Shown in pieces: positions 21,388 to 48,789 of a stretch of 64,000 nucleotides of DNA; the stretch's first letter is position 1; each line of letters begins with the position of its first letter. The notes beneath the pieces are model-generated. The model was given only the letters and a program-made list of their open reading frames with translations, did no database searches and was not told where the DNA came from. The translations under genes and the position numbers were made by a program. Source of the stretch: Spirochaetia bacterium (GTDB taxonomy: Bacteria; Spirochaetota; Spirochaetia; WTKD01; G963693115); assembly GCA_965226065.1 (NCBI GenBank), contig OZ245332.1, positions 809,651 through 873,650 on the forward strand, in the 5' to 3' direction.

Positions 21388-21431
21388 GAATAAATATTGA
21401 CACTATCAAAAAAGCACCATACAATCTTATC

Positions 21432-22894: not shown

Positions 22895-23052
22895 AGATAT
22901 ATACCTACAGAAATTACATTTCCACTTGAGCGATATCACACTTACGAGGTGGAGGGAGATACAAACAACGTTGTAACTCTTGACATCTCTGATGGCACGC
23001 TCTATGTCGCTGATTATGGAAATCATATCATTCGTAAACTAGAGTATAGATA
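22895..23052 (+). pseudogene. NHL-repeat fragment in the same frame as the TPR ORF, separated from it by a single TAG
   Basis: Translation RYIPTEITFPLERYHTYEVEGDTNNVVTLDISDGTLYVADYGNHIIRKLEYR* contains the NHL signature YVADxGNHxIRK. The offset from 22094 is 801 nt, so the two ORFs are in frame. Confidence 0.45.
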
Positions 23053-23066
23053 ACATACAGGCTGTA

Positions 23067-23110
23067 CAAAAGGGAAGCGCTTTTTTTTTATGCGCTTCCC
23101 TTTTTCTTAT
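23067..23110. terminator. Rho-independent terminator hairpin
   Basis: AAAGGGAAGCGC-ttttttttttat-GCGCTTCCCTTT with a T-run. Confidence 0.7.
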
Positions 23111-23151
23111 TAAAAAAAAGTAGCATAGTCTTACCCACCACCCCACAGCCC

Positions 23152-23306
23152 GTTTTAAGCACTAAAACACCATGTAATACATGACAAAATTGTAATGTAT
23201 TTTAGGTGAGAAAAGGCTTGAAAAAAAGAGTAAATGTACCATTATGTATATAGGTAGAAGTTTGTTTTAATCCTTAAAAAACTTTTACGTAGTACAGGAG
23301 TAATTC
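23152..23306 (+). promoter_or_regulatory. Conserved 5' expression module, copy A (promoter, inverted repeat, RBS) of the variable lipoprotein family
   Basis: The ~155-bp block CACTAAAACACCATGTAATACATGACAAAATTGTAATGTATTTTAGGTGAGAAAAGGCTTGAAAAAAAGAGTAAATGTACCATTATGTATATAGG...ACAGGAGTAATTC-ATG recurs about 5 times in the window. It carries TTGAAA/TATGTA-like hexamers, a 7-bp inverted repeat AATACAT-N14-ATGTATT, and AGGAG 8 nt before the ATG. Confidence 0.55.
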
Positions 23307-23925
23307 ATGACACATAAGAAACCTATATATATATATATATATATATATACTCATTACGATAGCATTAGTAAGCTGTGAACCCGACAAAGTACTATACAAA
23401 GTAATTCCACAAAAAGCAAAAATTATAAAGTCCTCCTTTGAAAAAGAAGCAGTATTCCTGAAATGGGATGTAAAGAAGCTAAAAGAAGAGAAGGTAGCAG
23501 CCTATGGAATATCGTATGGCATCGTGAATGGAAAGACGCTTAAAAAGCGAGAGGTAGTACCAAAGTTCATGGAAGCAGAAGGGTTCACGATACGCAAACT
23601 AGAAGAAGGAATACAGTATTGGTTTAAGGTGCAGGCAATCTACGAAGAATTTTCAGGACCGTGGTCAGAGAAAGCAGAAGGGATAACGGGTAAGCCACAG
23701 CCACCGGTAAATTTTAAGGTAAAGAAAAACACGGAAAAGGCAAAATGGTTTGTCAATGTATCATGGGAAAATAACCCATTGAATGATGAAAGAAAATTAA
23801 ATATAGAAGAATATAGGGTAAAGTGCTGGGACAGCAATAACCCTACAAGTAAATATGAAAAGACATTTTCATCTTTACTGTGGATAATGTACTATTCTGT
23901 ATACTTATCAATCAATAAAACATAA
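23307..23925 (+). CDS. Variable surface lipoprotein, N-terminal module copy A (phase-OFF at the TA tract; truncated after FN3-like domain)
   Basis: After the TA tract the frame ...ILITIALVSCEPDKVLYKVIPQKAKII...EVVPKFMEAEGFTIRKLEEGIQYWFKVQAIYEEFSGPWSEKAEG... is open to 23925. It diverges from the full-length paralogue after KYEKTFS and runs into the upstream region of the next gene. Confidence 0.55.
23324..23349 (+). repeat. (TA)13 tract inside codons 6-14 of lipoprotein copy A
   Basis: Counted directly. ATG at 23307, CCT at 23322-23324, then 26 nt of TA, then CTCATTACGATAGCATTAGTAAGCTGT. The signal peptide frame is +1 relative to the ATG, so this copy is OFF. Confidence 0.9.
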
Positions 23926-23957
23926 ATAAATATAATTAAAAAACAAGGAGAAATACT

Positions 23958-24734
23958 ATGAAAAAAATATATACAACAATACTAATTATTGCCTTAGCTT
24001 TATTCATCTCATGCGATGAGAAGAAAGCCGAAGATGATATTAAAAAAGCATTTACAAAGATTACCGATAAAGCGGGAGATGTAATAGACGCCGTAGACAA
24101 GACAACACCGAAGCCGAAAGGAAGCGGAACGCTTACGAATACCGAAGGTGAAGAAGCAGAAGACGAAGAGGCAGAAAGTGAAGGAGTTGAAGAGCCAGAA
24201 GACACACTAACACTAATAAAACCCGTACTAAACCGTGAAAATGCACCGTGGAGCAGAAGAATTGTATTTGCGAAAATAGCACAGCATACCTACAGATTAA
24301 AAGAAGAAAAAACAGGAGTAGCACTTACGGAGTATAACAGGGATATAATGCAAGTAACCGCCACGCAGTCCGCACAAAATGTAATCGTAGTCGCCACGTT
24401 TGACGGTAAGACTTCAGAAAGTAACCCTATTGAGTTTACAAGAATACCAGGCAATACCCTAAGCTTTGCACAGGCAAAACGAACAGAAAACGCATATACT
24501 ACCGAAAGCTATACCCAAGCAGCTACTAAAGGTGATACAGTTGCAGGAGATACCAGAAATATACAATATAGCATAAACCCTACAGGTGAAGGTGTTACCA
24601 TCGATAGCAGTAGCGGAGAGGTTACCATTCAAAGAGGCTCGGACCCAGCGGGAGACTATACTATTACCGCAGAACTTCCAGAAGATGAAAAATATACAAG
24701 AGCCACCGCAACATACAGCCTTACCGTTGAGTAG
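23958..24734 (+). CDS. Small surface lipoprotein paralogue (signal peptide, acidic linker, one Ig-like repeat, conserved C-terminal domain)
   Basis: MKKIYTTILIIALALFISC lipobox. Repeat core ATQSAQNVIVVATFDGKTSESNPIEF. C-terminal GDTRNIQYSINPTG...SSSGEVTI...YTITAELP..EKYTRATATYSLTV is shared with the 25645, 40429 and 41292 genes. Confidence 0.75.
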   Translation: MKKIYTTILIIALALFISCDEKKAEDDIKKAFTKITDKAGDVIDAVDKTTPKPKGSGTLTNTEGEEAEDEEAESEGVEEPEDTLTLIKPVLNRENAPWSRRIVFAKIAQHTYRLKEEKTGVALTEYNRDIMQVTATQSAQNVIVVATFDGKTSESNPIEFTRIPGNTLSFAQAKRTENAYTTESYTQAATKGDTVAGDTRNIQYSINPTGEGVTIDSSSGEVTIQRGSDPAGDYTITAELPEDEKYTRATATYSLTVE

Positions 24735-24846
24735 CGTAACACATGAAAAGCAAAGACATGAAAGGCTTAGAGGCAGATTACAAAATACATAAACGACTTG
24801 AAAAAAAGAAAGTAAAAGACTTAAAAAACTTGGCTAAAGAGGAAAG

Positions 24847-25005
24847 GAAAGCAAAAGACGCTAAAACACCATGTAATACATGACAAAATTGTAATGTATT
24901 TTAAGTAGAAAAAAGCTTGAAAAAAAGAGTAAATGTACCATTATGTATATAGGTAGAAGTTTATTTTTATCCTTAGAAAACTTTTACGTAGTACAGGAGT
25001 AATTC
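24847..25005 (+). promoter_or_regulatory. Conserved 5' expression module, copy B
   Basis: Near-identical to 23152-23306. Confidence 0.55.
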
Positions 25006-25622
25006 ATGATATATAAGAAACCTATATATATATATATATATATACCCTAATTACGATAGCATTAGTAAGCTGTGAACCCGACAAAGTACTATACACAGTA
25101 ATTCCACAAAAAGCAAAAATTATAAAGTCCTCCTTTGAAAAAGAAGCAGTATTTCTGAAATGGGATGTAAAGAAGCTAAAAGAAGAGAAAATAGCAGCCT
25201 ATGGAATATCGTATGGCATCGTAAATGGAAAGACACTTAACAAGCGAGAGGTAGTACCAAAGTTCATGGAAGCAGAAGGGTTTACGATACGCAAACTAGA
25301 AGAAGGAATACAGTATTGGTTTAAGGTGCAGGCAATCTACGAAGAATTTTCAGGACCGTGGTCAGAGAAAGCAGAAGGGACAACGGGCAAGCCACAGCCA
25401 CCGGTAAATTTTAAGGTAAAGAAAAACACGCTAGGGACAAAATGGTTTGTAGATGTATCGTGGGAAAATAACCCATTGAATGATGAAAGAAAATTAAATA
25501 TAGAGGAATATAGGGTAAAGTGCTGGGATAGCAATAACCCTACAAGTAAATATGAAAAGACATTTTCATCTTTACTGTGGATAATGTACCATTCTGTCTA
25601 CTTATCAATCGATAAAGTATAA
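25006..25622 (+). CDS. Variable surface lipoprotein, N-terminal module copy B (phase-OFF; truncated)
   Basis: Downstream frame TLITIALVSCEPDKVLYTVIPQKAKII...MEAEGFTIRKLEEGIQYWFKVQ... is open to 25622. It has the same truncation junction as copy A. Confidence 0.55.
25023..25044 (+). repeat. (TA)11 tract in lipoprotein copy B
   Basis: ATG at 25006. 22 nt of TA follow, then CCCTAATTACG, which is 2 nt longer than the CTCATTACG of the other copies. The lipoprotein frame is therefore +2, so this copy is OFF despite the same n as the ON copy. Confidence 0.9.
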
Positions 25623-25644
25623 GTAAAACAAAGGGAGAAATACT

Positions 25645-27006
25645 ATGAAGAAACTATATACAACAATACTAATTATTGCCTTAGCTTTGTTCATTTCATG
25701 CGATGAAAAGAAAGCAAAAGATGAAATTACAAAGGCACTTGATAAAGCGGTGGACGCGGTAGATAAGACAACACCGAAACTAACTAAACCCGTACTAAAT
25801 GCTACCCGTGTGAGAGTAGGAACAGCGGCTACATTCCCTAAAGTAGCAGGGTATACCTACACCTTAAAAGAGAAAAAAAGAGGAGTCAGAATAAGCGAAG
25901 GTACAAGTAACACAATGCAAGTCACCGCTACACAAGCAGCTAGCGGTGTTGTTGTAGTTGCGACTAAGGACGGTAATAGCATAGATAGCGAGCCTATAGA
26001 ATTTGTTATTATTGAGTTAACGAAACCCGCAGTAAGTAGCTACCGTGTGAGAACGGTACAAGTGGCTACATTCCCGAAAGTGTTAGGACATACTTATGAA
26101 TTGAAACAAGCTATAAGCGGTGTAAGCCTTGAGGTATCAGATGAGAGCATGGGACGAGTAACCGCTACACAAGCAGCAAGCAATGTAATCATAGTAGCAA
26201 CGCTTGACGGTAACACCGAGGAAAGCGACCCTATAGAATTTGTACTTATTGAGTTAATAAAGCCAGCAGTAAGTAGCAACCGTGTAAAAGTAGGAACACC
26301 GATTATACTTACAAAAGTAGAAGCACATACCTATAAATTGAAAGAAGAGGTAAGCGGCGTAAGTCTTGAGGTATCAGATGAGAGCACGGGAGAACTCACA
26401 GCCACGCAGTCCGCACAAAATGTAATTATAGTAGCCACGCTTGATGGTAATACCGAAGAAAGCGACCCTATAAATTTTATTGAGGTAATAAAACCCGCAG
26501 TAAGCGAAATTTCAGCACCCTGGGATACAGTAATTACATTCCCGAAAGAACCAGAGCATACTTATGAACTGAAAGAAGAAAAAACAGGAGTCACATTAAG
26601 CGAGGCTACCAGTGACACAATGCAAATCACCGCTACACAGTCCGCACAAAATGTAATTATAATTGCAACGGTTGACGGCTTAACTGAAGAAAGCGACCGT
26701 ATTGAGTTTAGAAGAAAGCAGGGTAATGCTTTAAGCTTTGCACAACCAAGACGATCGGAAAAACGAAGAACTACTTTTACGCAAACCGCTAGTAAAAGCG
26801 GAGCAGTTGCAGGAGATACCCGAGACATAACATATAGCGTATATCCTAGTGTTTTCGGTGTTAGTGTTGATAGCAGTAGCGGAGAAGTTGCAGTAAATTT
26901 TATTGCCGACTATAGACGGTATACTATTACCGCACAACTTCCAAGAACCGCAAAGTACGAAAGAAGCACCGCAACATATACACTTGTAGTCCCGAGATCG
27001 AAATAA
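25645..27006 (+). CDS. Surface lipoprotein paralogue with four tandem ~78-aa Ig-like repeats plus conserved C-terminal domain
   Basis: MKKLYTTILIIALALFISC. Repeats KPAVSS.RV..G....TKV..HTY.LK....GVSLEVSDES.G..TATQ.A.NVIIVATLDGNTEESDPIEF occur four times. C-terminal YTITAQLP..AKYERSTATYTLVV. Confidence 0.75.
   Translation: MKKLYTTILIIALALFISCDEKKAKDEITKALDKAVDAVDKTTPKLTKPVLNATRVRVGTAATFPKVAGYTYTLKEKKRGVRISEGTSNTMQVTATQAASGVVVVATKDGNSIDSEPIEFVIIELTKPAVSSYRVRTVQVATFPKVLGHTYELKQAISGVSLEVSDESMGRVTATQAASNVIIVATLDGNTEESDPIEFVLIELIKPAVSSNRVKVGTPIILTKVEAHTYKLKEEVSGVSLEVSDESTGELTATQSAQNVIIVATLDGNTEESDPINFIEVIKPAVSEISAPWDTVITFPKEPEHTYELKEEKTGVTLSEATSDTMQITATQSAQNVIIIATVDGLTEESDRIEFRRKQGNALSFAQPRRSEKRRTTFTQTASKSGAVAGDTRDITYSVYPSVFGVSVDSSSGEVAVNFIADYRRYTITAQLPRTAKYERSTATYTLVVPRSK
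25780..26725 (+). repeat. Intragenic tandem repeats (~234 bp x4) encoding Ig-like modules
   Basis: Seen as repeated peptide blocks in the 453-aa product and as repeated antisense ORF fragments. Confidence 0.7.
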
Positions 27007-27140
27007 TTAAAAGAAAAGCGAAGACATGAAAGACTTAAAGGCAGAAAATCAATCACAAAATGTAATGTAAGGACGAAAAAAAACAACCTTTTTACTGTGA
27101 ATAATCTACCATTCTGTCTACTTATCATAAGTAAATATAA

Positions 27141-27760
27141 TTGAAACACGCAGAGGAACGCGAAGAATATGAATTACGCGTGAAAGCAAGCACAAACACG
27201 GGAGATATTGTGAAGCCGACATTCAGACCTAGTAAAAGTGAGCCATGGGGAACGGATATAAGCTTTGAAAAGCTTGAGGGCTATACGTATGAATTGAAAG
27301 ACGACAAAGGTGGAGCAGTGAGCTTAGACACAAGCAGTGACCCTGCGAGAATAAGTGCGACAGAGTCTGTGAGCGCAGTAGTGATAGAAGTGAGACGTTC
27401 GGGATATAGTGGGAAAGTAGAAAGCGACCCGATTGAGTTTACGAAAAAAGCGGGCAACGGCTTGAGCTTTGTGAGCTCTTCAGAAGAGAAAAGAGTTAGC
27501 ACTGCTTCCGCAACATTTACGCAGAGCGCTACTAACGATAGAGCAGTTACAGGAGATGACAGATCCGTAGTGTACAGCATAAGCCCTACGGGACAAGGTG
27601 CCACGATAAACCCTAGTAGCGGTGAGGTGACAATAACACCAGCGGCCGCAATCAATGGCTTTACCGTTACCGCAACATTACCCGCAAACGCAAAGTATAC
27701 CGCTTCTAACACGGCAACATATACGCTTAATGTAGTGGCTCCACCGGGAACAAGAAAGGT
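27141..27760 (+). pseudogene. Promoterless mosaic fragment of the variable lipoprotein family (internal part of the 718-aa paralogue joined to a C-terminal-domain variant)
   Basis: Begins abruptly at AEEREEYELRVKASTNTGDIVKPTFRPSKSEPWGTDISFEKLEGYTYELKD... This block is nearly identical over ~100 aa to the middle of the minus-strand gene at 34593-36934. It then switches to ...GLSFVSS..ATFTQSATNDRAVTGDDRSVVYSISPTG..SSGEVTIT...YTLNV. It has no signal peptide or module upstream, only the family junction sequence at 27081-27130. Confidence 0.6.
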
Positions 27761-28418
27761 ACGCGTATTGGTATCGTTTAATTATCTTAACTTAATAAAA
27801 GGTAACAAAGGACAAATCTTGTGGATAAAAACAAGTATTATAAATGCGCATGCAGGGTACAGGGTCAGGGTATTCAAAATTATTCAATAATTACAGTGTC
27901 ATATACATGTATGATTATTTATTGTTATTAAAAACTTTATGCTTTAGCTTCGGCTTATAGCAGCTCCGGTATCTAGTCGTGCCGGCAGTATGGAATGCAT
28001 GTAATTTGCAAAATTATTTGCTTTGATTGTCTTTACTTACCCCTTATGAATTTTATAAGATGTGTATTGTATGTCCTAGTATTTTACCACGGTATTATAC
28101 ATGGTGTTTTTTATAGAAAAGGAGCAAAAGTATCGTTGCAAGTGAAAGAGAAATAATACTTACAAAGTTGAGACCTTTTCAATTTCTAACGGCGGAAGAG
28201 GAATTTTGATTTGAACCAATACTTTAACAGATACTATATCTTGAGTAGCACCATGTAAATATTTACTAATAAAATTAGTTAGAATTAACTTTAAATATTT
28301 TAAGGATAATAATTCAATCATTGTATTCAATTGTACTTTTCATCAGACGCTATTAAAGTGTGCATACAATATAATAAAATTACCTTATTTCTAAATAATA
28401 CAAGAGCGGAGTTATTAT

Positions 28419-29714
28419 ATGCTTGATATTAAATACATCGTAAAGAATGCATCTCGTTTTAGTACATCTGCACAGCAGAGAAATGTACGCGACTTCGTAC
28501 CAGAGCTCGTAGGCTTGTACGAAAAGAGTCTCATCATACAACAAGAATTAGAAACACTCTCTCAAGAACGAAACCATGTAGCAAAAGAAATTTCACAAAA
28601 AAAGGACGATGGACGCGCACGCCTTGTAGCACGCGGCAAAGAACTGAAAATGCAAATATCCGAGCATGACGCAGAACTGAAAAAGCTACAAAACGATATT
28701 CAATCGCTTGCCTTACAAATTCCAAACATACACCATCCGTCTGCACCACTTGGAAAAGAAGAAAAAGATAATCTCGTCATAAAAACGCATGGCACTGCAC
28801 GACAATTTTCTTTCACACCTAAAAGCCATATAGATTTGTGTACTGAACTCAATATTGTAGATTTTACCAACGCGACAAAAGTATCAGGACCGAAATTTTA
28901 CTACTTGAAAAATGAAGCGGTGTTATTAGAACTCGCACTTATACGCTTTGGAATTGACATACTACGCGAACATGGCTTTACAATTTTTGAAACACCTGAC
29001 ATTGCGCGCACTTCTATTGTCGAAAGTATCGGGTTTCTTCCGAGAGGAAATGAAAGTAACATTTACAACATTGAAGATGAAGGTACATCTCTTATCGGTA
29101 CGGCAGAAATAACCCTCGGTGGCTATTATGCAGATAGCATTATACCGTTGGAGTTACTGCCTATAAAAATGGCAGGAATTTCGCATTGCTTTCGCCGAGA
29201 ATCAGGTGCAGCAGGACAATATTCAAAAGGACTGTATCGTGTACATCAGTTTACGAAACTGGAAATGTTTGTTTTTTGCCATCCTGATAAATCAGAAACA
29301 ATGCATGAGGAATTATTGACGATAGAAGAACAACTGTATCAAAAGTTAGAAATCCCATACAGAATCGTAGATACCTGCACGGGAGATTTAGGAGCATCCG
29401 CCTACAGAAAATTTGACATAGAGGCGTGGATGCCAGGACGCGGAAAAACCGGCGAGTACGGCGAAATTACAAGTGTATCAAATTGTACCGATTATCAATC
29501 GCATAGGCTTAGTATACGCACACAAGACGAAGATTCCTCACACAATAAAATAAGGATATTTCCTCACACGTTAAACGGCACGGCACTTGCCATACCTCGA
29601 ACGCTTATTGCGATTGTAGAAAATTTTCAAAACGAGGATGGAAGTATACGTATACCCGATGTACTTATTCCTTATTGTGGTTTTTCATCTGTGAAGAAAA
29701 GCCACAATTCGTAA
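28419..29714 (+). CDS. serS: Seryl-tRNA synthetase
   Basis: 431 aa. N-terminal coiled-coil arm plus class II core (motif 2 region FRRESGAAG, motif 3 region). Confidence 0.9.
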   Translation: MLDIKYIVKNASRFSTSAQQRNVRDFVPELVGLYEKSLIIQQELETLSQERNHVAKEISQKKDDGRARLVARGKELKMQISEHDAELKKLQNDIQSLALQIPNIHHPSAPLGKEEKDNLVIKTHGTARQFSFTPKSHIDLCTELNIVDFTNATKVSGPKFYYLKNEAVLLELALIRFGIDILREHGFTIFETPDIARTSIVESIGFLPRGNESNIYNIEDEGTSLIGTAEITLGGYYADSIIPLELLPIKMAGISHCFRRESGAAGQYSKGLYRVHQFTKLEMFVFCHPDKSETMHEELLTIEEQLYQKLEIPYRIVDTCTGDLGASAYRKFDIEAWMPGRGKTGEYGEITSVSNCTDYQSHRLSIRTQDEDSSHNKIRIFPHTLNGTALAIPRTLIAIVENFQNEDGSIRIPDVLIPYCGFSSVKKSHNS

Positions 29715-29728
29715 TATTTCACAAACCG

Positions 29729-30835
29729 ATGCACGAATTTATAGCAGAGATAGGCACTTCGCATCTCGGATCTTTTGAAAAAGCAAAATGCATGATAGAT
29801 GCAGCGCGTAAGGCAGGTGCAACAACTGCAAAGTTTCAATGGGTTATAGCCGATGAAATAATTTCAAAGCATGCGGGTATTATTACCCTACCTAATGGAG
29901 ATACAAACATCTACGAGTATTTTTTGTCAGTGGAAAAAGATAAAGATTTTTACGCAAAACTTAAATCTTACACAGAGAAATGCGGCTTAGAATTTTTATG
30001 CAGTGTCTTTGGGCTAAAATCTCTGCATCTATTGCTACAACTAAACCCAAAGAGAATAAAAATAGCCTCACCCGAAATAAACCATAGAGAACTCTTACAG
30101 TCCCTTGCACAACATAAAGTCGCAGTAGTGCTCTCAAGTGGTGTATCAACTTTGATAGATTTATTACGAGCGGTCAATATTCTACGTGCAGGCAAAATAG
30201 AAGATATTGCTATATTACGCTGCGTTACAGAATATCCTGCTTCACCTTATTCGTACGCACTACAATTACTGGAAAAATACCAAACACTCTTTCAATGCCA
30301 ATGCGGAATATCTGACCACACGCAAGAAACTTCAATACTTCCTACTATCGCAGCAGCATATGGAAGCACGATGGTAGAAAAACATTTTTTTCTCCCTAAT
30401 GAACACGACGAGGTAACACGCTGTCCTGATGATCCTATTGCATTATCACCTCATGCATTTTCTGAAATGGTAAAATCTACTACAAACATCGCAACAATAT
30501 ACAAAACAAAAGGCCATCGCGCTGCAAAAACTGCGGTTAAAAAATGCTATGGTGAGAAGACCGTTCACGCAGTTATAGGTACTAGACAATCTTCAAAAAA
30601 ACAAAAACATAGCGCTGCATTGTTACCTCATTACTTTACTACGCGAAGAAGTCTTTTTGCGCGTACAAACATAGCAAAAGGGAATATACTCACACCACAA
30701 AATTGTATATTGCAGCGTAGTGAACACAACACAAGGCCGGGTATACCCACTGAAGCATATACCACAATTTTGGGTAAAAAAGTACATTCGAAAATAGCAA
30801 AAGGCATGCCAATAACATTTGAACATTTCCTGTAG
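29729..30835 (+). CDS. NeuB-family nonulosonic-acid (sialic/pseudaminic/legionaminic acid) synthase-like protein with SAF domain
   Basis: N-terminus FIAEIGTSHLGSFEKAKCMIDAARKAGATTAKFQ matches the NeuB TIM-barrel signature (IAEIG.NH.G....A..MI..A...GA...KFQ). The C-terminal ~60 aa are SAF/antifreeze-like. Start taken at MHEFIAE. Confidence 0.65.
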   Translation: MHEFIAEIGTSHLGSFEKAKCMIDAARKAGATTAKFQWVIADEIISKHAGIITLPNGDTNIYEYFLSVEKDKDFYAKLKSYTEKCGLEFLCSVFGLKSLHLLLQLNPKRIKIASPEINHRELLQSLAQHKVAVVLSSGVSTLIDLLRAVNILRAGKIEDIAILRCVTEYPASPYSYALQLLEKYQTLFQCQCGISDHTQETSILPTIAAAYGSTMVEKHFFLPNEHDEVTRCPDDPIALSPHAFSEMVKSTTNIATIYKTKGHRAAKTAVKKCYGEKTVHAVIGTRQSSKKQKHSAALLPHYFTTRRSLFARTNIAKGNILTPQNCILQRSEHNTRPGIPTEAYTTILGKKVHSKIAKGMPITFEHFL

Positions 30836-30917
30836 GAGTAATTGAGAAAAAGCATTGAGACTATGCAGAAAACTCTAAATCTCATCAAGGTTATTTTCAA
30901 TATATTTGATTATATTT

Positions 30918-31626
30918 AGAAGAAGGAGAACCACTAAAAGAAGGTATCAGAGAAGTAGAAAGAGCAGGAAGGTTTTTTCACTATTTCGCTGCAGAAGCAT
31001 TGAGAAACATCGGCGATTTTGTAGACTCAGTTCGTACAGAAGTACAAATAGAAGTATTTAGAGTGCCGGTAGGTACCGTACTTGTTATCACGCCATGGAA
31101 TTTTCCTGTTGCACTCCCTGCATGGAAAATAGCTCCTGCACTTGCCTTTGGTAACAGCGTTATCTTAAAACCTGCTTCCACTACTCCAGCTAGTGCCTGT
31201 GCCTTGGCAAAAATAATTCACGAAGCAGGAGTGCCTGAAGCTGTGTTTCAAATGCTACTCAGCGACTCTGTACTCGGAGAAACATTGGTAAAAAATCCCG
31301 CATTTGATGCAGTAAGCTTTAGAGGATCCTTTGCCGTAGGACGCAATATTGCAAGACTCTCAGGTGAGCTACTACGCCACTTCCAATTAGAAATGGGCAG
31401 CAAAAACGCACTCATCATCCTTGATGATGCCGACATTGATATTGCAGTAGCCTGTGCAATCAATGGTGCCTTTGGTGGTACAGGGCAAAAATGCACTGCA
31501 TCCTCTCGCATCATTGTAAGCGAAGGAATATACAAAACCTTTCTCGAAAAATTCACAGAAGCGGCTTCACAATTTAGGCTATTCGGGAGGTATGTTAGGA
31601 CTAAGCCTATATCCTTTTCATCTTAA
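30918..31626 (+). pseudogene. Aldehyde dehydrogenase family gene remnant (central ~230 aa only)
   Basis: Open frame ...[23 protein letters not shown]...[32 protein letters not shown]...ELGGKNA-like LEMGSKNALII...GQKCTASSR. It lacks the first ~100 aa and the C-terminal catalytic Cys domain end. Confidence 0.6.
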
Positions 31627-31654
31627 AAATACCTCTGATTGTCAGATATCTGAC

Positions 31655-31756
31655 ATGATGGACGAAATAAAACGTATAGTTGATTTGGTGGGAATAGATC
31701 ATGTCGCATTAGGTACAGATATTTGTCAAGGTCGCTCTGTGCAAGAATTAGAATAA
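31655..31756 (+). pseudogene. Fragment resembling the C-terminal end of a membrane dipeptidase (M19)
   Basis: The 34 codons MMDEIKRIVDLVGIDHVALGTDICQGRSVQELE* resemble the IDHVGIGSDFDG region of M19 dipeptidases. Very short, so the call is tentative. Confidence 0.35.
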
Positions 31757-31766
31757 CTGAAGCGGT

Positions 31767-32997: not shown

Positions 32998-33006
32998 CAT
33001 ATATAA

Positions 33007-34464: not shown

Positions 34465-34592
34465 GATGCAACTAAAATGTAAATTTTCGAGAGTAAAAAT
34501 CTGATTTTTGAAAGAATATTTTGATGTGTAATAAATACTTAACTACTACAAAATAAAAAGTAAAATGTTATCCCCTAAGGCGGACTTGCAAG

Positions 34593-36934
34593 TTAATTGT
34601 ATTTTCTTATGCGATAACAAAGACCCTTTTTCCAATTCCCGTCTCTATGTGTCCCAGTTGCACTGCAGTGATATTCATGCAGTTTTACTGTTATTTTATA
34701 AGATGCTGTACTTTCCGTATACTTCTCATTTTGTTCTTTTTTCGCAGTAATTGTTTCTGTTTTTGATCCTCTAAAAATTATAAGTCGATCCATATCAATT
34801 CTAGAAGATGATGCTGTGTATATAATTCTTCTTTTGTCGCCGGGGATATCTCTGCTTACACGCACCTTTTGAAGCCTTGCTCGTCCAAAAGCGTTTCTGA
34901 TTTTCCCAAACTTTGGCACATTAACTGTTAGCATAAAAGGTCCTGTTTTTGTAAAGAAAAGCGTATCGCCCGTTTGCCTCGTAAACGTTATCGGGACACT
35001 GTCTATGACAGCTTCTTCGTATTTCGAATCTCCAGGTAGTATCGCTTGTACAATTACATTTTCAGCAAACTGATTAGCGGTAATTTTTCCATTGCCTAGT
35101 GTCACTCCAGTATGACGGTTTTTCAATTTATACCTATGCAGCGGTGCAGGGGTAAATGTAATAGCTGTTCCCCACGGCACACTCGTTTTACTGAATATAG
35201 GCTTTGTCGCAGGTCTCGTCTGCTTCGTAAACTCAATCGGGACACTGTCTATGACAGCTTCTTCGTATTTCGAATCTCCAGGTAGTATCGCTTGTACAAT
35301 TATATTTTTAGCAAACTGATTAGCGGTAATTTTTCCATTGCCTAGTGTCACTCCAGTATGACGGTTTTTCAATTTATACCTATGCAACGGTGCAGGGGTA
35401 AATGTAATAGCTGTTCCCCACGGCACACTCGTTCTACTGAATATAGGCTTTGTCGCAGGTCTCGTCTGCTTCGTAAACTCAATCGGGTCGCTTTCTACTT
35501 TCCCACTATATCCCGCACGTCTCACTTCTATCACTACTGCGCTCACAGACTCTGTCGCACTTATTCTCGCAGGGTCACTGCTTGTGTCTAAGCTCACTAC
35601 TCCGCCTTTGCTGTCTTTCAATTCATACGTATAGCCCTCAAGCTTTTCAAAGCTTATATCCGTTCCCCATGGCTCACTTTTACTAGGTCTGAATGTCGGC
35701 TTCACAATATCTCCCGTGTTTGTGCTTGCTTTCACGCGTAATTCATATTCTTCGCGTTCCTCTGCGTATTTATCATCCGCTGCCTTCCTCGCTGTTATCG
35801 TAAATGTATTGCCTACCGCTGCTGCCTCAATGCTCACTTCACCACTACTGCCGTCTATTCTCGCTCCACTGCTACTCGGATTTATGCTGTATCGCACGGG
35901 TGTGTCTTCAGGGTCAGTTTCTGTAATTACATGCGTATATTTGTTTTCATTTGTGTTAAACATGAAATCATGACTTGCACTTTCAAACTTAAATCTATCT
36001 CCCGCTTGCCTCGTAAATGCTATTTCTGCACTTTCTTCTTTTCCCTCATATTCTGTGTGTGTCACTTCTATCACTACTGCACTCACAGACTCTGTCGCAC
36101 TTATTCTCGCAGGGTTATTGCTTATGTCTAAGCTCACTACTCCGCCTTTGCTGTCTTTCAATCTATACTTATGACCTTCAAGCATTCCAAAGGTAATGTC
36201 TGTTCCCCACTGCACACTCGTTTGACTGAATGCTGGCGCTTCTATCGCCTTTGCTGTGGTGCTTCTCCTCTCTACCGTGCTTCTTACTCCTTTGTCTGTC
36301 TCTATGTACAATTCACATATATACTCTTTTCCCGCTTTTAGCGCTAACTCATTCATCTTCATAGAAACTTCTTCTTGTGACGCTTCTTTCTCTTTAGCTA
36401 CCCCTCCTGTCTCATTACACTTCACTTTGTAGCTGTAACGTATCTCTAAGTCTTCGTTCACCTCGTTCTTTTTCCAGCGTAACTCAAGACTTCGTTTGCC
36501 ATCTTTTGTGGGCTGCTTTATTATCTTAAAATCTGTAGGTGGTTCTGGTTGCCCCGTTGTCCCTTCTGCTTTCTCTGACCACGGTCCTGAAAATTCTTCG
36601 TAGATTGCCTGCACCTTAAACCAATACTGTATTCCTTCTTCTAGTTTGCGTATCGTAAACCCTTCTGCTTCCATGAACTTAGGGACTACCTCTCGTTTGT
36701 TAAGAGTCTTGCCGTCTACTATGCCATATGATATTCCATAGGCTGCCACCTTCTCTTCTTTTAGCTTCTTTACATCCCATTTCAGAAATACTGCTTCTTT
36801 TTCAAAGGATGCTTTTATAATTTTTGCTTTTTGTGGAATTACTGTGTATAGTACTTTGTCGGGTTCACAGCTTACTAATGCTATCGTAATGAGTATATAT
36901 ATATATATATATATATAGGTTTCTTATGTGTCAT
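34593..36934 (-). CDS. Variable surface lipoprotein copy C (~780 aa if in frame; phase-OFF at TA tract)
   Basis: ATG at 36934 (MTHKKP...), (TA)12 at 36894-36917, then the signal peptide frame is shifted (offset 41 nt, not divisible by 3). The downstream frame is open to 34593. It carries the FN3-like N-module, Ig-like domains and an internal 83-aa duplication. Confidence 0.6.
34985..35482 (-). repeat. Intragenic ~249-bp direct duplication in copy C
   Basis: TKQTRPATKPIFS(R/K)TSVPWGTAITFTPAPLHRYKLKNRHTGVTLGNGKITANQFA.N.IVQAILPGDSKYEEAVIDSVPI.F occurs twice. The DNA is near-identical. Confidence 0.75.
36894..36917 (-). repeat. (TA)12 tract in copy C
   Basis: Counted on the plus strand between GAG (36891-36893) and GG (36918-36919). 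Confidence 0.9.
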
Positions 36935-37088
36935 AAATTACTCTTGTACTGTGTAAAAGTTTTCTAAGAATTAAAACAAACTTTTACCTACATATATAAT
37001 GGTACATTTACTCTTTTTTTCAAGCCTTTTTTTACCTAAAATACATTACAATTTTGTCATGTATTACATGGTGTTTTAGCGTCTTTAG
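36935..37088 (-). promoter_or_regulatory. Conserved 5' expression module, copy C
   Basis: Reverse complement matches the copy A/B module. Confidence 0.55.
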
Positions 37089-37248
37089 ACATACTGCTTA
37101 TGCTTTTGCCTCTATCATGTCACGGCTGATAGGTAGACAGAATAGGGTATTATCCACAGTAAAATAATACTGAAATATAACACGCTTACATTACATTTTA
37201 CGCTTGCACCTCATCGATGTTTGGACATTCTTTGTCGCTTGTTTTCTT

Positions 37249-40158
37249 TTACCATGCCCATTTCGGCTTATTTGATTTCTGCATTGCGGTTGCACTCATG
37301 AATATGTATTGGGCGTTTCTTCCGCTTTTGTCTACCCAAGCGGTTAAGTCTTGATTGAATGAAGTAGCAAAGTAGAACATATAGCTCATGGCTGTTACAC
37401 TTGATACATCCCAATTATTAAGCGACTGATTGAATGAAGTAGCCTCTCTGAACATATGGCTCATTTCTGTTACACTCGATACAGTCCAATTATTAAGCGG
37501 CTTATTGAATGAGGTAGCATTTTGAAACATACTCCACATTTCTGTTACACTCGATACAGTCCAATTATTAAGCGGCTGATTGAATGAAGCAGCATTGTCA
37601 AACATATGGCTCATGGTTGCTACACTCGATACATCCCAATTATTAAGCGGCTGATTGAATGAAGTAGCATTGTAAAACATACCGCTCATGTCTGTTACGC
37701 TTGAGGTGTTCCATTTGCTAATGTCACCGTTAAAAGTAGCATTGTTATAAAAAAGCTCGCTCATATCGGTTATGTCTGAAGTATCGATGTAGTTTAGATC
37801 TACTTCGTTGCCGTGTGCTCTTATGGCTTGCTTAATTTCGTATATCAATTCTGCTTTAGTTGGGGTTTTGAATTTTGCCACTGTTAGCTGGTATGATGCT
37901 CTTTGTGCTTCGTATTTTGCACTTTGTGCCTTTCTTGCTGTTATTGTAAATGTATTGCCTATCGCTGCTACTGTAAAGTCTACTTTACCGCTTACGCTAT
38001 CTATGCTCGCAACTGCTCCCGTGGGACTGATGCTATATTCGATGTCCCTAGTATCACCGCTTACGCTTCTATCATTAGTAGCAACCTGTGTATAAGTATT
38101 TCCACCTGTTGCATACATGGTATTCTTATTCACGGTTGCAAAGCGGATCGTACTACCTGCCTGCCTTCTAAACTCAATAGGATCACTTTCTACGCTTCCC
38201 GTATAACCTCTACGCTTTGCAACAATAATAATATTTGCTGCTGGCTGTGTTGCTGTTATTTGCCCGGTACTCTTATCAAACGCTACCCCGGTTATAGCTT
38301 GTTTCAATTCATAGCTATGATCCACTACTTTTGTAAGTCTGATAGGTGTACCCCACCTCTCGCTTCTTTTGCTTACCGCTGGTTTTGTAATATCTCCTGT
38401 GTTTGTATTTGCTTGCACTCTTAGCTGGTATGATGCTCTTTGTGCTTCGTATTTTGCACTCTGTGCCTTTCTTGCTGTTATCGTAAATGTTGTCCCTATC
38501 GCTGCTAGTGTAAAGTCTACTTTACCGCTTCCCGTATCGATGCTTGCACCTACTCCCGTGGGACTGATGCTATACGATACGACTCCCGTATCTCCTGCTA
38601 CTACTCTATCGTTAGTAACCGTCTGTGTATGAGTATTTCCCTTGCCGTATTGTACCGCTACATCGATGTTTGCAAAGCGGAGCGTACTACCTGCTTGTCT
38701 TGTAAACTCAATAGGATCGCTTTCTACGCTTCCCGTATAACCTCTACGCTTTGCCACAATAATAATCCTTGCTGCTGGCTGTGTTGCTGTTATTTGCCCG
38801 GTACTCTTATCAAACACTACCCCGGTTATAGCTTGTTTCAATTCATAGCTATGATCCGCTACTTTTGTAAGTCTGATAGGTGTACCCCAGCTCTCGCTTC
38901 TTTTGCTTACCGCTGGTTTTGTAATATCTCCTGTGTTTGTATTCGCTTGCACTCTTAGCTGGTATGATGCTCTTTGTGCTTCGTATTTTGCACTTTGTGC
39001 CTTTCTTGCTGTTATCGTAAATGTCTTGCCGACTGCTCCTAGCGTAAAGTCTACTTTACCGCTTCCCGTATCTACGCTTGTACCTGCTCCCGTGGGACTG
39101 ATGCTATACGATACGACTCCGGTATCTCCTGCTACTACTTTATCGTTAGTAACAGTTTGTGTATGAGTATTTCCGCTTTTTCCATATTCTATCGGTACAT
39201 CAATGTTTACAAAGCGAAGCGTATTGCCTGCTTGTCTCGTAAACTCAATAAGTTCACTTTCTGCACTCCCTGTATAGCCTGTGCGTTTTGCAACAATAAT
39301 AATCCCTGTTACCGGCTGTGTTGCTGTTACTTGCCCGGTGCTCTCATCAAACACTACCCCGCTTATAGCTTGTTTCAATGCGTAGCTATGATCTACTACT
39401 TTTGTAAGTGTAATCGGTGTTCCCCACCTTTCGCTTCTTTTACTTACCGCTGGTTTCTCTATATCATCAAACGCAAGTACTCCGCTTTGCTTTACTTCGC
39501 TTAGCGTTCCTTTATCTGTTTTTACCTGCACACTACAAACATAGTTCACCTTCCCGCTTGTCTCCAGTACTCCTTTTGTAGATACCTTTGTAGGTGCTGA
39601 AAATGTCTTTTCATATTTACTTGTAGGGTTATTGCTATCCCAGCACTTTACCCTATATTCTTCTATATTTAATTTTCTTTCATCATTCAATGGGTTATTT
39701 TCCCACGATACATCTACAAACCATTTTGTCCCTAGCGTGTTTTTATCTACCTTAAAGTCTACCGGTGGCTCTGGCTTACCCGTTGTTCCTTCTGCTTTCT
39801 CAGACCAGGGTCCCGCAAACTCTTCATAGATTGCCTGCACCTTAAACCAATATTGAGTCCCTTCTTTTAGCTTGCGTATTGTAAAGCCTTCTTTTTCCAT
39901 GAACTTAGGCACTACTTCTCGTTTGTTAAGAGTCTTGCCGTCTACTATGCCATATGATATTCCATAGGCTGCCACCTTCTCCTCTTTTAGCTTCTTTACA
40001 TTCCATTTTAGAAATACTGCTTCTTTCTTAAAGGAGGACTCTATAATTTTCGCTTTTTGTGGAATTACTGTATATAGTACTTTGTCGGGTTCACAGCTTA
40101 CTAATGCTATCGTAATGAGTATATATATATATATATATATAGGCTTTTTATGTCTCAT
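37249..40158 (-). CDS. Variable surface lipoprotein copy D, full length and in frame (969 aa): FN3-like N-module, 3x178-aa Ig-like repeats, C-terminal DUF285/BspA-like repeat array
   Basis: ATG at 40158. MRHKKPIYIYIYILITIALVSCEPD... with lipobox LVSC. (TA)11 is in frame. The ORF is continuous to 37249. Confidence 0.85.
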   Translation of the reverse strand: MRHKKPIYIYIYILITIALVSCEPDKVLYTVIPQKAKIIESSFKKEAVFLKWNVKKLKEEKVAAYGISYGIVDGKTLNKREVVPKFMEKEGFTIRKLKEGTQYWFKVQAIYEEFAGPWSEKAEGTTGKPEPPVDFKVDKNTLGTKWFVDVSWENNPLNDERKLNIEEYRVKCWDSNNPTSKYEKTFSAPTKVSTKGVLETSGKVNYVCSVQVKTDKGTLSEVKQSGVLAFDDIEKPAVSKRSERWGTPITLTKVVDHSYALKQAISGVVFDESTGQVTATQPVTGIIIVAKRTGYTGSAESELIEFTRQAGNTLRFVNIDVPIEYGKSGNTHTQTVTNDKVVAGDTGVVSYSISPTGAGTSVDTGSGKVDFTLGAVGKTFTITARKAQSAKYEAQRASYQLRVQANTNTGDITKPAVSKRSESWGTPIRLTKVADHSYELKQAITGVVFDKSTGQITATQPAARIIIVAKRRGYTGSVESDPIEFTRQAGSTLRFANIDVAVQYGKGNTHTQTVTNDRVVAGDTGVVSYSISPTGVGASIDTGSGKVDFTLAAIGTTFTITARKAQSAKYEAQRASYQLRVQANTNTGDITKPAVSKRSERWGTPIRLTKVVDHSYELKQAITGVAFDKSTGQITATQPAANIIIVAKRRGYTGSVESDPIEFRRQAGSTIRFATVNKNTMYATGGNTYTQVATNDRSVSGDTRDIEYSISPTGAVASIDSVSGKVDFTVAAIGNTFTITARKAQSAKYEAQRASYQLTVAKFKTPTKAELIYEIKQAIRAHGNEVDLNYIDTSDITDMSELFYNNATFNGDISKWNTSSVTDMSGMFYNATSFNQPLNNWDVSSVATMSHMFDNAASFNQPLNNWTVSSVTEMWSMFQNATSFNKPLNNWTVSSVTEMSHMFREATSFNQSLNNWDVSSVTAMSYMFYFATSFNQDLTAWVDKSGRNAQYIFMSATAMQKSNKPKWAW
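37280..37770 (-). repeat. C-terminal array of ~6 x 27-aa repeats (FNQPLNNWDVSSVT.MS.MF.NATS), DUF285 / BspA-like LRR type
   Basis: Repeated peptide DISKWNTSSVTDMSGMFYNATSFNQPLNNWDVSSVATMSHMFDNAASFNQPLNNWTVSSVTEMWSMFQNATSFNKPLNNW... Period is 81 bp. Confidence 0.7.
37860..39470 (-). repeat. Three near-identical ~534-bp intragenic tandem repeats (178 aa each)
   Basis: Protein blocks KPAVSKRSE.WGTPI.LTKV.DHSY.LKQAI.GV.FD.STGQ.TATQP...IIIVAKR.GYTGS.ES.PIEF.RQAG.T.RF......TITARKAQSAKYEAQRASYQL.VQANTNTGDIT occur three times. The antisense ORFs 37808-38095, 38369-38632 and 38903-39166 are almost identical. Confidence 0.85.
40120..40141 (-). repeat. (TA)11 tract in copy D (in-frame, ON)
   Basis: ATG first base at 40158. 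First base of CTC (Leu) at 40119. Offset is 39 nt, so in frame. Confidence 0.9.
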
Positions 40159-40307
40159 GCATTACTCCTGTACTATGTAAAAGTTTTCTAAGGATTAAAA
40201 CAAACTTTTACCTATGTACATAATGGTACATTTATTCTTTTTTTCAAGCCTTTTTTCACCTAAAATACATTACAATTTTGTCATGTATTACATGGTGTTT
40301 TAGCGTC
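40159..40307 (-). promoter_or_regulatory. Conserved 5' expression module, copy D
   Basis: Reverse complement matches the module, including AGGAG 8 nt before the ATG. Confidence 0.55.
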
Positions 40308-40428
40308 TTTTTCTTTCCTTTCCTCTTTAGCCAAGTTTTTTAAGTCTTTTGCGTTCTTTCTTTTCAAGTCGTTTATGCATTTTGTAATCTGCCTCTAAGC
40401 CTTTCATGTCTTCGCTTTTCATATTCCG

Positions 40429-41133
40429 TCACCTAGCAAAGTCGTCACTTACAAGTAGTTTGTATGTTGCGGTACTTCGTTCGTATTTCTCGTTTTGCTG
40501 AAGTTCTGCGGTAATAGTATAGTCTCCAGTGTCTGCCTTATCTGCAACTCTAACCTTACCGCTACTGCTGTCAATAATAACACCGTGGTCGGCGGGACTG
40601 ATGCTATATTTTATATTGCGGGTATCTCCTGCAACTGTTCCGCTTTTACTAGCGGTTTGCGTAAAAGTAGCTCTTCGTCTTTCTGTGCGGCTTGCCTGTG
40701 CAAAGCTCAAGGTATTGCCTTGCTTTCTTGTGAACTCAATAGGATCGCTTTCTGAAGTTTTGCCGTCAAGGGTTGCGACTATGATTACATTTTGCGCGGA
40801 CTGTGTAGCGGTGAGTTGCATTGTCTCGCTGCTGTACTCTGTAATTGCTACTCCTGTTTTTTTCTCTTTCAAGGTGTAGGTATGGTCTGGTATTTTTGGG
40901 AATAAAATAGGTTCACTCCACGGTACAAGCTTACCGCTTAGTGCGGGTTTTCGTGCTATATTCGTAAGCGTTCCGCTTCCTTGTTTCTTCGGTGTTGCTT
41001 TATCTGCCACGTCCTCCGCTTTATCCTCTATTTTCTCAATGGCTTTAGTAATATCATCTTCGGCTTTCTTTTCATCGCAAGAGATGAATAAAACCAATGA
41101 AATAATTAGTATTGCGGTATATAGTTTCTTCAT
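40429..41133 (-). CDS. Small surface lipoprotein paralogue (234 aa)
   Basis: MKKLYTAILIISLVLFISC. One Ig-like repeat (ATQSAQNVIIVATLDGKTSESDPIEF). Conserved C-terminal domain (..YTITAELQQNEKYERSTATYKLLV). Confidence 0.75.
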   Translation of the reverse strand: MKKLYTAILIISLVLFISCDEKKAEDDITKAIEKIEDKAEDVADKATPKKQGSGTLTNIARKPALSGKLVPWSEPILFPKIPDHTYTLKEKKTGVAITEYSSETMQLTATQSAQNVIIVATLDGKTSESDPIEFTRKQGNTLSFAQASRTERRRATFTQTASKSGTVAGDTRNIKYSISPADHGVIIDSSSGKVRVADKADTGDYTITAELQQNEKYERSTATYKLLVSDDFAR

Positions 41134-41291
41134 AGTATTTCTCCCTTTGTTTTAATTATACTTTATCGGCTGATAGGTAGATACAATACTACATTATGCA
41201 TAGTAAAATGTTATTGCAACATAACACGCTTACATTACATTGTCTGTCTGCTTTTAAGTCTTCGCTTTTCATATTTTTTTGAGTTTTGCCA

Positions 41292-42092
41292 TTAACTGCA
41301 TGGCCTGTCTCCCGCAAGGTGATGACACACCGCTAGCGTATAGGTTGCGGTAGCTCTTCTATATTTTTCGGTTTGTGGAAGTTCTGCCGTTACGGTAAAC
41401 TTTACATTAGCTGCGCTTTGTGTAAGTGTTACTTCTCCGCTAGCGGAGTCAATTGTTCCACCTCTTCCCGTAGGGTTTATGCTATATGTTACACCTCGGT
41501 TGTCTCCTCTTACCGATGTAGTATGTACTCTAATCGCTTGCGTGTATTTTGATTCTCCGCTTCTTTTTAGAGTTATTCCATTGGCATTGTTAGCAAAGCT
41601 CAAGGTATTACCCTGTATTCTCGTAAACTCAATAGGGTTACTTTCAATGCTCTCACCGTTAAGCGTTGCGACTATGATTACATTTTGTGCGGACTGCGTG
41701 GCGGTGATTTGCATTCTGTTACCGGTAACCTCTGTAAGTTCTACTCCTGTTTTTTCTTCTTTCAATTCATAGGTATGCTCCGCTATTTTCGCAAATATAA
41801 TTATTACGTTCCATGGTGCACTCTCACGGCTTAGTGCGGGCTTTATTAGTGCTTGCGGTGATGTGTCTTCTGGTTCTTCAACTCCTTCACCTCCTGCGTC
41901 TTCACCTTCGGCATTTTTAGGCGTACCGCTTCCTTGTGGCTTTGGGGTTGCTTTGTCCACTACATCTGCCGCTTTATCGGTAATCTCTGTAAATGCTTTT
42001 TTTATATCGTCTTCGGCTTTAGCTTTCTGCTCATCGCATGAGACAAACAAAGCCAATGCAATAATTAGTATTGCTGTGTATATTTTATTCAT
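41292..42092 (-). CDS. Small surface lipoprotein paralogue (266 aa)
   Basis: MNKIYTAILIIALALFVSC. Same architecture (ATQSAQNVIIVATLNGESIESNPIEF ... YRRATATYTLAV). Confidence 0.75.
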   Translation of the reverse strand: MNKIYTAILIIALALFVSCDEQKAKAEDDIKKAFTEITDKAADVVDKATPKPQGSGTPKNAEGEDAGGEGVEEPEDTSPQALIKPALSRESAPWNVIIIFAKIAEHTYELKEEKTGVELTEVTGNRMQITATQSAQNVIIVATLNGESIESNPIEFTRIQGNTLSFANNANGITLKRSGESKYTQAIRVHTTSVRGDNRGVTYSINPTGRGGTIDSASGEVTLTQSAANVKFTVTAELPQTEKYRRATATYTLAVCHHLAGDRPCS

Positions 42093-42120
42093 AGTATTTC
42101 TCCTTGTGTTTTAATTATCT

Positions 42121-42500
42121 TGTTGTTCCTTCTATTTTCTCCGACCAGGGTCCTGAAAATTCTTCGTAGATTGCCTGCACCTTAAACCAATACTGTATTC
42201 CTTCTTCTAGTTTGCGTATCGTGAACCCTTCTGCTTCCATGAACTTTGGCACTACCTCTCGCTTTTTAAGCGTCTTTCCATTCACGATGCCATACGATAT
42301 TCCATAGGCTGCTATTTTCTCTTCTTTTAGCTTCTTTACATCCCATTTCAGGAATACTGCTTCTTTTTCAAAGGAGGACTTTATAATTTTTGCTTTTTGT
42401 GGAATTACTTTGTATAGTACTTTGTCGGGTTCACAGCTTACTAATGCTATCGTAATGAGTATATATATATATATATATATATAGGCTTTTTATGTATCAT
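42121..42500 (-). pseudogene. Truncated N-terminal module copy E (phase-OFF, ~125 codons) fused directly to the upstream region of the 41292-42092 lipoprotein gene
   Basis: ATG at 42500 (MIHKKP...), (TA)12 at 42460-42483 (offset 41, so OFF). The FN3-like sequence runs down to ...EKAEGTTG at ~42125. The conserved upstream element of the small lipoprotein gene follows immediately. Confidence 0.55.
42460..42483 (-). repeat. (TA)12 tract in copy E
   Basis: Counted on the plus strand between GAG (42457-42459) and GG (42484-42485). Confidence 0.9.
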
Positions 42501-42628
42501 GAATTACTCCTGTACCACGTAAAAGTTTTGTAAGGATTAAAAAAAACTTCTACCTATATACATAATGGTACATTTACTCTTTTTTTCAAGTGTTTTTTCA
42601 CCTAAAACACATTACAATTTTGTCATTG
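42501..42628 (-). promoter_or_regulatory. Conserved 5' expression module, copy E (distal end diverges)
   Basis: Matches the module up to ...TTTTGTCAT and then diverges. Confidence 0.45.
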
Positions 42629-42731
42629 TATACACCTTCTGTATTGTTTGATGAATAAATCTAGGATTACTTCAGTGGCTATCTTAATAGAACCATACTT
42701 GAAAACATGACTGAAGTTATAATAAAGATAC

Positions 42732-47094: not shown

Positions 47095-48789
<1,695 letters not shown>

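Follow-up and report, generated by a model that had tools for sequence, protein, structure and literature searches.

We describe a locus of lipoprotein genes in a 64,000-nucleotide (nt) stretch of DNA, hereafter the window (that stretch at its full length), from an uncultured spirochete whose small genome of 1.85 Mb shows signs of decay. The locus consists of two arrays, or arms, which occupy the gaps between ahpC and serS and between proS and purL and point towards each other. The window holds five copies of a 5′ module of 0.5–0.75 kb, A and B on the plus strand in the left arm and C, D and E on the minus strand in the right arm, and every copy carries a tract of TA dinucleotides, (TA)n, which a preliminary description of the same DNA had missed. 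We read the locus as a lineage-specific, repeat-switched multigene family of surface lipoproteins that would vary through slippage of the (TA)n tract and through gene conversion from copy to copy, and we give this reading a probability of roughly 0.65.

Two genomes served as comparators. Strain G2 (a 1,800,608-bp contig, ERZ25067893, at ~8x coverage) has a seryl-tRNA synthetase (SerS) in the same 90% cluster as that of the window and a backbone ~99% identical to it. The outgroup, L081 (a 485-kb contig), is the next relative after G2, with a SerS 79% identical to that of the window; the nearest SerS of a named spirochete is ~56–57% identical among the matches listed.

A (TA)n tract in the signal-peptide codons

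In a five-way alignment of the modules, an upstream stretch of ~140 nt is nearly invariant, and the ribosome-binding site (RBS) and ATG are also conserved. Each module runs in the order promoter-like site, AGGAG, ATG, 14 further nt, pure (TA)n tract, hydrophobic stretch to the lipobox LVSC, and FN3 domain. The promoter-like site, TTGAAA-16-CATTAT, lies ~60 nt upstream of the start codon in all five copies and is a sigma-70-like candidate, called by consensus match only. The tract, (TA)11–13, starts 17 nt after the start of the ATG and in every module specifies the IYIYIY stretch of a lipoprotein signal peptide. Its state in each copy is as follows.

Module A tract, 23324–23349, plus strand: (TA)13, out of frame, off
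Module B tract, 25023–25046, plus strand: (TA)11 then CC, equivalent to 12 units, off
Module C tract, 36917–36894, minus strand: (TA)12, off
Module D tract, 40141–40120, minus strand: (TA)11, in frame, on
Module E tract, 42483–42460, minus strand: (TA)12, off

From the module ATG, the reading frame carries on past the tract in D alone; the other four modules are frameshifted. Downstream of the tract the correct protein frame is nevertheless intact, at once in A, C and E and two bases later in B, and the body of gene C is open for 718 codons despite its off tract. A tract of the D type is in frame only when n leaves a remainder of 2 on division by 3 (8, 11, 14). At the orthologous A position the tract has 13 units in the window versus 12 in G2, with flanks that are 96–99% identical; the counts for C, D and E are equal in the two strains, and the paralogues span 11–13 units (all counts were read from long-read metagenome assemblies). 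As in a repeat switch, the unit is not a triplet and lies in the 5′ coding region, the off reading frames are intact, and tract length varies from copy to copy and from strain to strain.

A near-palindrome (window 23180–23200 in module A), CATGTAATACATG followed by ATTGTAATGTA, lies a short way upstream of the promoter-like −35 element; it is intact in modules A–D and could be a binding site for a regulator. Module E diverges across it and keeps the downstream part only, and a related sequence, AATGTAATGTAAG, occurs at the end of the junction element described below.

Two facing arrays and their inverted repeats

The preliminary description had placed the two halves of a variable-lipoprotein locus in inverted orientation on either side of serS and proS, with modules A and B reading rightwards, C, D and E reading leftwards, and serS, a NeuB-like gene, a pseudogene cluster and proS between them. 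This layout holds throughout: the plus-strand modules lie at 23.2–25.6 kb and the minus-strand modules at 36.5–42.6 kb, and all four of the intervening elements were found. The features of the locus, in order of position, are listed here.

23162–23925, plus strand: module A, with promoter-like site 23218–23245, ATG 23307, lipobox LVSC and FN3; an in-frame reading would stop at 23925
23958–24734, plus strand: A2, small lipoprotein gene of 258 residues with its own RBS and signal peptide (MKKIYTTILIIALALFISC); a junction element lies before it
24854–25622, plus strand: module B, with promoter-like site 24917–24944 and ATG 25006
25645–27006, plus strand: B2, small-type lipoprotein gene of 453 residues with internal 237-nt tandem repeats
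27141–27890, plus strand: 5′-truncated remnant of a C-type gene; a complete module and 5′ part are present at the G2 position
28419–29714, plus strand: serS, seryl-tRNA synthetase
29729–30835, plus strand: NeuB/SAF-domain gene, start inferred from the 368-residue G2 orthologue
31000–31626, plus strand: aldehyde-dehydrogenase fragment, pseudogene remnant
31852–32811, plus strand: BCCT transporter fragment, pseudogene remnant
33007–34464, minus strand: proS, archaeal-type prolyl-tRNA synthetase
34593–37086, minus strand: gene C with module C (36521–37086), promoter-like site 37023–36996 and ATG 36934; body of ~780 residues if in frame
37249–40310, minus strand: gene D with module D (39598–40310), promoter-like site 40247–40220 and ATG 40158
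40429–41133, minus strand: D2, small lipoprotein gene of 234 residues, with a junction element upstream at 41167–41241
41292–42092, minus strand: E2, small lipoprotein gene of 266 residues, which follows module E
42122–42631, minus strand: module E, with promoter-like site 42589–42562 and ATG 42500; truncated after ~125 codons
42732–46619, plus strand: purL, in the conserved right flank

Pairs of plus- and minus-strand modules form inverted repeats, located by a repeat search and by self-BLAST. They had been put at ~0.7 kb and ~11–19 kb apart, and we measure 505–710 nt with spacers of 11,101–19,112 nt (11.1–19.1 kb) and 90–96% identity, a similarity far above chance. The longest pair is A (23162–23871) with D (40303–39598), 710 nt at 90%. 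Module A also pairs with C (561 nt, 92.5%) and with E (512 nt, 95.7%, rising to 98% over 362 nt), and B (24854–25419) with C (37086–36521; 566 nt, 92%), D (544 nt, 91%) and E (510 nt, 94%). The longest perfectly identical run in each of these pairs is 69–167 nt. Two further relationships escaped the preliminary description. The innermost inverted pair, 27144–27445 with 35771–35470 (302 nt, 98%, 8 kb apart), directly brackets the interval from serS to proS. Homology between the arms also continues beyond the modules and reaches the small lipoprotein genes (24218–25568 with 40951–39598; 1,367 nt, 84%).

A replication terminus was considered as the cause of the convergent arms and was rejected, since both outer flanks have negative GC skew and the local change of sign tracks the coding strand of the arrays.

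Lipoprotein genes of the arms

Gene D, the copy in frame, encodes a lipoprotein of 969 residues with a signal peptide ending in LVSC, FN3, three repeats of ~178 residues and a PARCEL/DUF285 C terminus (PF03382, 211.6 bits against a cut-off of 25; TIGR02167, 61.1 bits against a cut-off of 30). PARCEL repeats are confined to gene D among the genes of the locus, and a PDB sequence search with its repeat region returned no match. The G2 orthologue of the truncated module E continues into a D-like gene, which is called as 830 residues from an internal start. The module reading frames of A and B end after ~200 codons and are followed by a junction element of ~70 nt and then by a separate small lipoprotein gene.

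The junction element is found in both orientations at gene boundaries (23874–23944, 25571–25630, 27091–27148, 37123–37197 and 41167–41241). Its core reads TTTACTGTGGATAAT...CTATTCTGT.TACCTATCA; it encodes the C-terminal residues (SLLWIMYHSVYLSIDKV) of the short module reading frames and holds a promoter-like AAGACA-17-GATAAT.

Large in-frame tandem repeats occur in three of the genes: 246 nt x2.1 at 96% in gene C (34971–35487); 534–537 nt x3 (37879–39506) and 75-nt PARCEL units x4.6 (37352–37698) in gene D; and 237 nt x2.2 in B2 (25969–26477). They are a possible further source of size variation.

Exchange between copies and differences between strains

We aligned the window with a G2 composite of 54.7 kb, rebuilt from four overlapping loci. 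The two are collinear at ~99% over 4439–24053, 27144–30916 and 30916–31755, and at 96.6% overall over 31762–37105. All breaks in synteny fall at the edges of modules or arrays (~24050, 27144, 37105 and 42122), and the array contents between them are 70–90% alike or absent, against a backbone that is 99% identical.

Paralogous modules resemble one another more closely than modules from matching positions in the two strains do. At the C position, the window and G2 modules share 93.7% identity, and the G2 one is 98% identical both to window module B and to its inverted partner in G2. Window module E and its G2 orthologue are 82% identical in the upstream 160 nt, beside purL-side sequence that is 99–100% identical. 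Along the collinear C gene, identity of 99–100% falls to 86–93% in the last ~440 nt, which form the 5′ half of the module and hold the promoter, the tract and the N terminus. Among the five window modules, parsimony-informative sites give incompatible groupings that mix opposite arms (ABE/CD, ABC/DE, AE/BCD and ACD/BE), and the exchanges are distributed along the module. Copies on opposite arms have, as judged from these site patterns, demonstrably exchanged sequence, and the visible recombination appears to be mainly non-reciprocal gene conversion.

Larger rearrangements also separate the strains. In G2, purL lies at 661 kb of the record together with ~14 kb of the right flank, which matches window 42122–56585 at 99.2% identity and is still preceded by a minus-strand array; proS lies at 1,463 kb, ~0.8 Mb away. 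At its distal end, the right arm of G2 adjoins an FAD-binding gene and MiaB-like genes. The window flanks share the sign of their GC skew, and the same flanks are oppositely oriented in the G2 record. The shift of purL is most simply read as an inversion of ~0.8 Mb that would span the replication origin and have one endpoint in the right arm. The arrangement in the window is unlikely to be an artefact, because the outgroup has the same linkage of proS and purL.

Orientation of the serS–proS block

The orientation serS(+)...proS(−) is identical in the window, G2 and the outgroup, and a flipped block was found in none of these three genomes (two strains and the outgroup). The G2 block likewise lies between a plus-strand left arm and a minus-strand right arm, bracketed by an inverted repeat of 2.2 kb at 92% identity; the left copy of that repeat is complete, and its window counterpart is 5′-truncated at 27144. 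The outgroup runs ligA, lipA, prfA, prmC, ahpC, a 1.5-kb gap, serS(+), neuB(+), two unrelated genes, proS(−) and purL(+), with purL starting 133 nt beyond proS, and its locus has neither lipoprotein arrays nor inverted repeats. The arrays are thus lineage-specific insertions into the ahpC/serS and proS/purL gaps, since the outgroup is without them, and the window keeps both the ancestral orientation and the ancestral linkage.

The preliminary description held that a crossover in any plus/minus module pair would invert the intervening segment and swap gene bodies between promoters. Its geometry stands, and the module repeats, with their perfect runs of 69–167 nt, look adequate as a substrate for homologous recombination, but the inverted block itself was not seen in the three genomes. 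The point that housekeeping genes would flip as well is borne out by the position of serS and proS inside the block of 8–19 kb; such a flip should not by itself disrupt them, because the promoters inside the block would move along. Reciprocal inversion of this block, serS and proS included, is therefore possible on the sequence, and there is precedent for ordinary genes in an invertible block bounded by paralogues (PMC6433261). As a route to surface variation, inversion fits the exchange between arms and the strain breaks at array edges, but each module has its own promoter-like site and ATG. For that reason inversion would be unnecessary for gene expression, and we do not take it to be the primary switch. 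The on/off determinant that the sequence does show is the (TA)n tract.

That RecA-type crossovers between plus and minus modules invert the 11–19 kb segment appreciably often, and so exchange gene bodies between on and off 5′ cassettes as a working layer of surface variation, seems to us unlikely. The idea can draw on the inverted repeats of 505–710 nt at 90–96% identity and their perfect runs, on the 362 nt of A/E and the 302 nt of the inner pair that reach 98% identity across the arms, and on the sequence that opposite arms have exchanged. The arms are mirror-ordered in both strains, the array-bounded 0.8-Mb rearrangement in G2 is consistent with inversion, and an even number of flips would restore the ancestral orientation that is observed. 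Its closest parallels are C. fetus sap and an element of C. jejuni bounded by Tlp paralogues, the latter a published precedent (PMC6433261). Against this, the central block lies the same way round in three of three genomes, the promoter-like site and start codon of each module would allow expression without inversion, and the mosaics can be explained by gene conversion without crossover.

Proposed mechanism and remaining alternatives

On the reading that we prefer, slippage with gene conversion, the repeated 0.5–0.75 kb unit would be an expression cassette made up of a promoter candidate, RBS, ATG, (TA)n, lipobox and FN3. Transcription of each cassette probably starts at a promoter of its own, and translation of each copy would be set by the frame of its (TA)n tract, with one of the five window copies on. 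Slipped-strand mispairing at the tract would switch copies on and off independently, and homologous recombination between cassettes, leaving conversion tracts, would reassign promoter, tract and N terminus to other gene bodies. Large array-bounded rearrangements may accompany conversion, and a crossover between a plus and a minus copy would invert the block and join gene bodies to other 5′ ends. We infer from sequence that the promoters are active, that the tracts slip in vivo, that recombination depends on RecA and that the proteins are exposed at the surface.

Several points weigh against this reading. Matches to the promoter-like consensus are not enriched in the sequence (21 found versus 16 expected in shuffled sequence). 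The dinucleotide counts come from long-read metagenome contigs, in the case of G2 at ~8x, and could include assembly errors; at that coverage the 0.8-Mb rearrangement could likewise be a mis-join through repeats. The comparison spans two strains, and block inversion at low frequency or at the level of the population may still occur. Switching itself we infer from static assemblies. With four of the five window copies off and several truncated, part of the family may also be decaying.

A more elaborate version, to which we lend little weight, is a two-layer, combinatorial system of surface variation in a host-adapted spirochete lineage not described before, in which ~20 (TA)n cassettes per 1.85-Mb genome would be constantly re-dealt to gene bodies by homologous exchange between mirror arrays, with reciprocal events giving inversions of ~10 kb, which would flip serS and proS, to ~0.8 Mb across the replication origin. 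The inverted placement would then have been selected, since recombination between the arrays would yield harmless inversions and not deletions.

Still less probable is a static relic, left by an ancient inverted duplication or by two independent insertions, in which most copies are decaying pseudogenes, the TA differences are neutral or assembly noise, and the arrangement plays no part in variation. Four of the five modules are frameshifted, module E and the inner-left copy are truncated, the central block holds pseudogenes, and the 1.85-Mb genome itself shows decay, all of which would suit such a history. Yet the off copies keep downstream frames of up to ~780 codons, and all copies conserve the promoter, RBS, ATG and tract. 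The family moreover comprises ~17 module-derived reading frames in this genome and 4 in G2, some in frame, and the arrays differ strongly at 99% backbone identity, with conversion tracts that are recent.

Site-specific inversion, in which a recombinase encoded elsewhere would act on a short site in the modules or junction elements as in Mycoplasma vsa/vpma and Ureaplasma mba/UU172 (PMC3047005, PMC4534519), could call on the ~70-nt junction element conserved in both orientations at gene boundaries and on the synteny breaks at element edges, but it is very improbable given that homology spans hundreds of nt and not a short core, that each gene has its own promoter-like site, unlike in single-expression-site systems, and that no recombinase or integrase was found among 40 window reading frames scanned against Pfam (most reading frames of at least 150 residues) or in the precomputed Pfam annotation of the G2 arms.

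Spread of the family

A word-indexed search with the module protein gave matches solely in the window genome and G2, amounting to ~21 distinct module-derived open reading frames (~17 and 4, respectively) across four protein clusters. Some members elsewhere in the window genome are in frame (P0121 and P0137, beginning MRHKKPIYIYIYILITIALVSC or MIHKKPIYIYIYILITIALVNC); many others are out of frame and are called from internal starts. A HMMER scan of residues 1–770 of the gene D product against 1.84 billion representative proteins gave 39 matches at E ≤ 1e-10. By these searches the lipoprotein family appears narrow. A scan of JGI metagenomes with an invariant module 20-mer yielded no further strains; its one contig, L086, has no homology to the window and was set aside as a chance match.

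Both G2 arms also contain an EcoRI_methylase-like gene that is absent from the window (L082 4553–5569 and L083 3694–4716; ~26495 and ~51018 of the composite). The genes are preceded by (TA)11 in one copy and by (CA)n(TA)12 in the other, next to a start reading ATGAAAAAATCAC, and could encode a phase-variable DNA methyltransferase.

Other features of the window

Relative to G2, the window is without ~330 nt after the neuB gene (30916) and without ~1.2 kb between the aldehyde-dehydrogenase and BCCT fragments (31755–31762), where G2 has a peptidase M19 fragment and small reading frames. The pseudogene cluster thus seems still to be eroding, and differently in the two strains. Outside the locus, a plus-strand reading frame of 310 residues (19173–20105) with weak ClpP/SppA-like similarity lies between prfA and prmC; it is present in G2 and not in the outgroup locus. 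A Fic/DOC-domain gene (5591–6757) is followed by overlapping minus-strand reading frames (6715–7445), and the alignment with G2 is broken at ~6927–7271. An Rfam scan of the window gave no matches.

Comparison with known systems

At the level of sequence, the locus exemplifies a contingency-locus family of surface proteins in a spirochete lineage that has no cultured close relative. Its multigene arrays are sites at which otherwise 99%-identical genomes appear to rearrange, and its long inverted paralogues around housekeeping genes are better taken as a recombination substrate than as evidence of a programmed inversion switch. If mixed orientations proved true, the locus would be a natural system in which to compare gene conversion with crossover between inverted repeats.

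Inverted copies are known from several surface-protein systems. At the sap locus of C. fetus, Dworkin and Blaser reportedly found a recA-dependent inversion between conserved 5′ regions of ~600 bp that flips DNA including the unrelated genes sapCDEF and connects the expression signals to another gene body; the single promoter is said to lie on the invertible segment, so that inversion is the switch. The present locus shares with sap its oppositely oriented paralogues with a long conserved 5′ region, and differs in its five promoter-like sites, its (TA)n frame switch and the single orientation seen in two strains and the outgroup. In C. jejuni, an element of ~92 kb is bounded by inverted Tlp paralogues, both of its orientations are documented, and homologous recombination has been proposed (PMC6433261). 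There, as here, inverted paralogues bracket a block of ordinary chromosomal genes, but our block measures 8–19 kb and has one orientation in the same three genomes. The vsa/vpma genes of Mycoplasma and mba/UU172 of Ureaplasma rely on a Xer-like recombinase, short sites and usually one promoter (PMC4534519, PMC3047005, PMC5634654). They too are variable lipoprotein genes in both orientations, and form chimeras by joining a 5′ part to alternative bodies; in contrast, we found no recombinase among the 40 window reading frames scanned or in the Pfam annotation of the G2 arms, and no single expression site here.

The closer likeness is to families switched by repeats. The opa genes are complete copies with their own promoters, set on or off by the frame of CTCTT repeats, with recombination between copies (PMC4534519). 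Both they and the present genes form a multicopy surface-protein family in which the frame is set by a repeat that separates the ATG from the codons of the mature protein, and in which copies recombine (PMC4534519). The repeat is a TA dinucleotide here versus a pentamer there, the products are lipoproteins versus β-barrel outer-membrane proteins without sequence homology to them, and the mirror-image arrays around housekeeping genes have no equivalent in the arrangement of opa loci. The oipA/hopZ genes of H. pylori carry a CT repeat in the signal-sequence codons, which switches by slipped-strand mispairing and varies in number between isolates (PMC4205683). A dinucleotide repeat in signal-peptide codons and variation in repeat number are common to both systems; the dinucleotide is TA versus CT, and tandem arrays sharing a promoter-bearing cassette of 0.5–0.75 kb stand against single outer-membrane protein genes. 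Seen beside these two, the TA dinucleotide and the mirror-image arms are modest peculiarities within the type represented by opa and the CT repeats of H. pylori.

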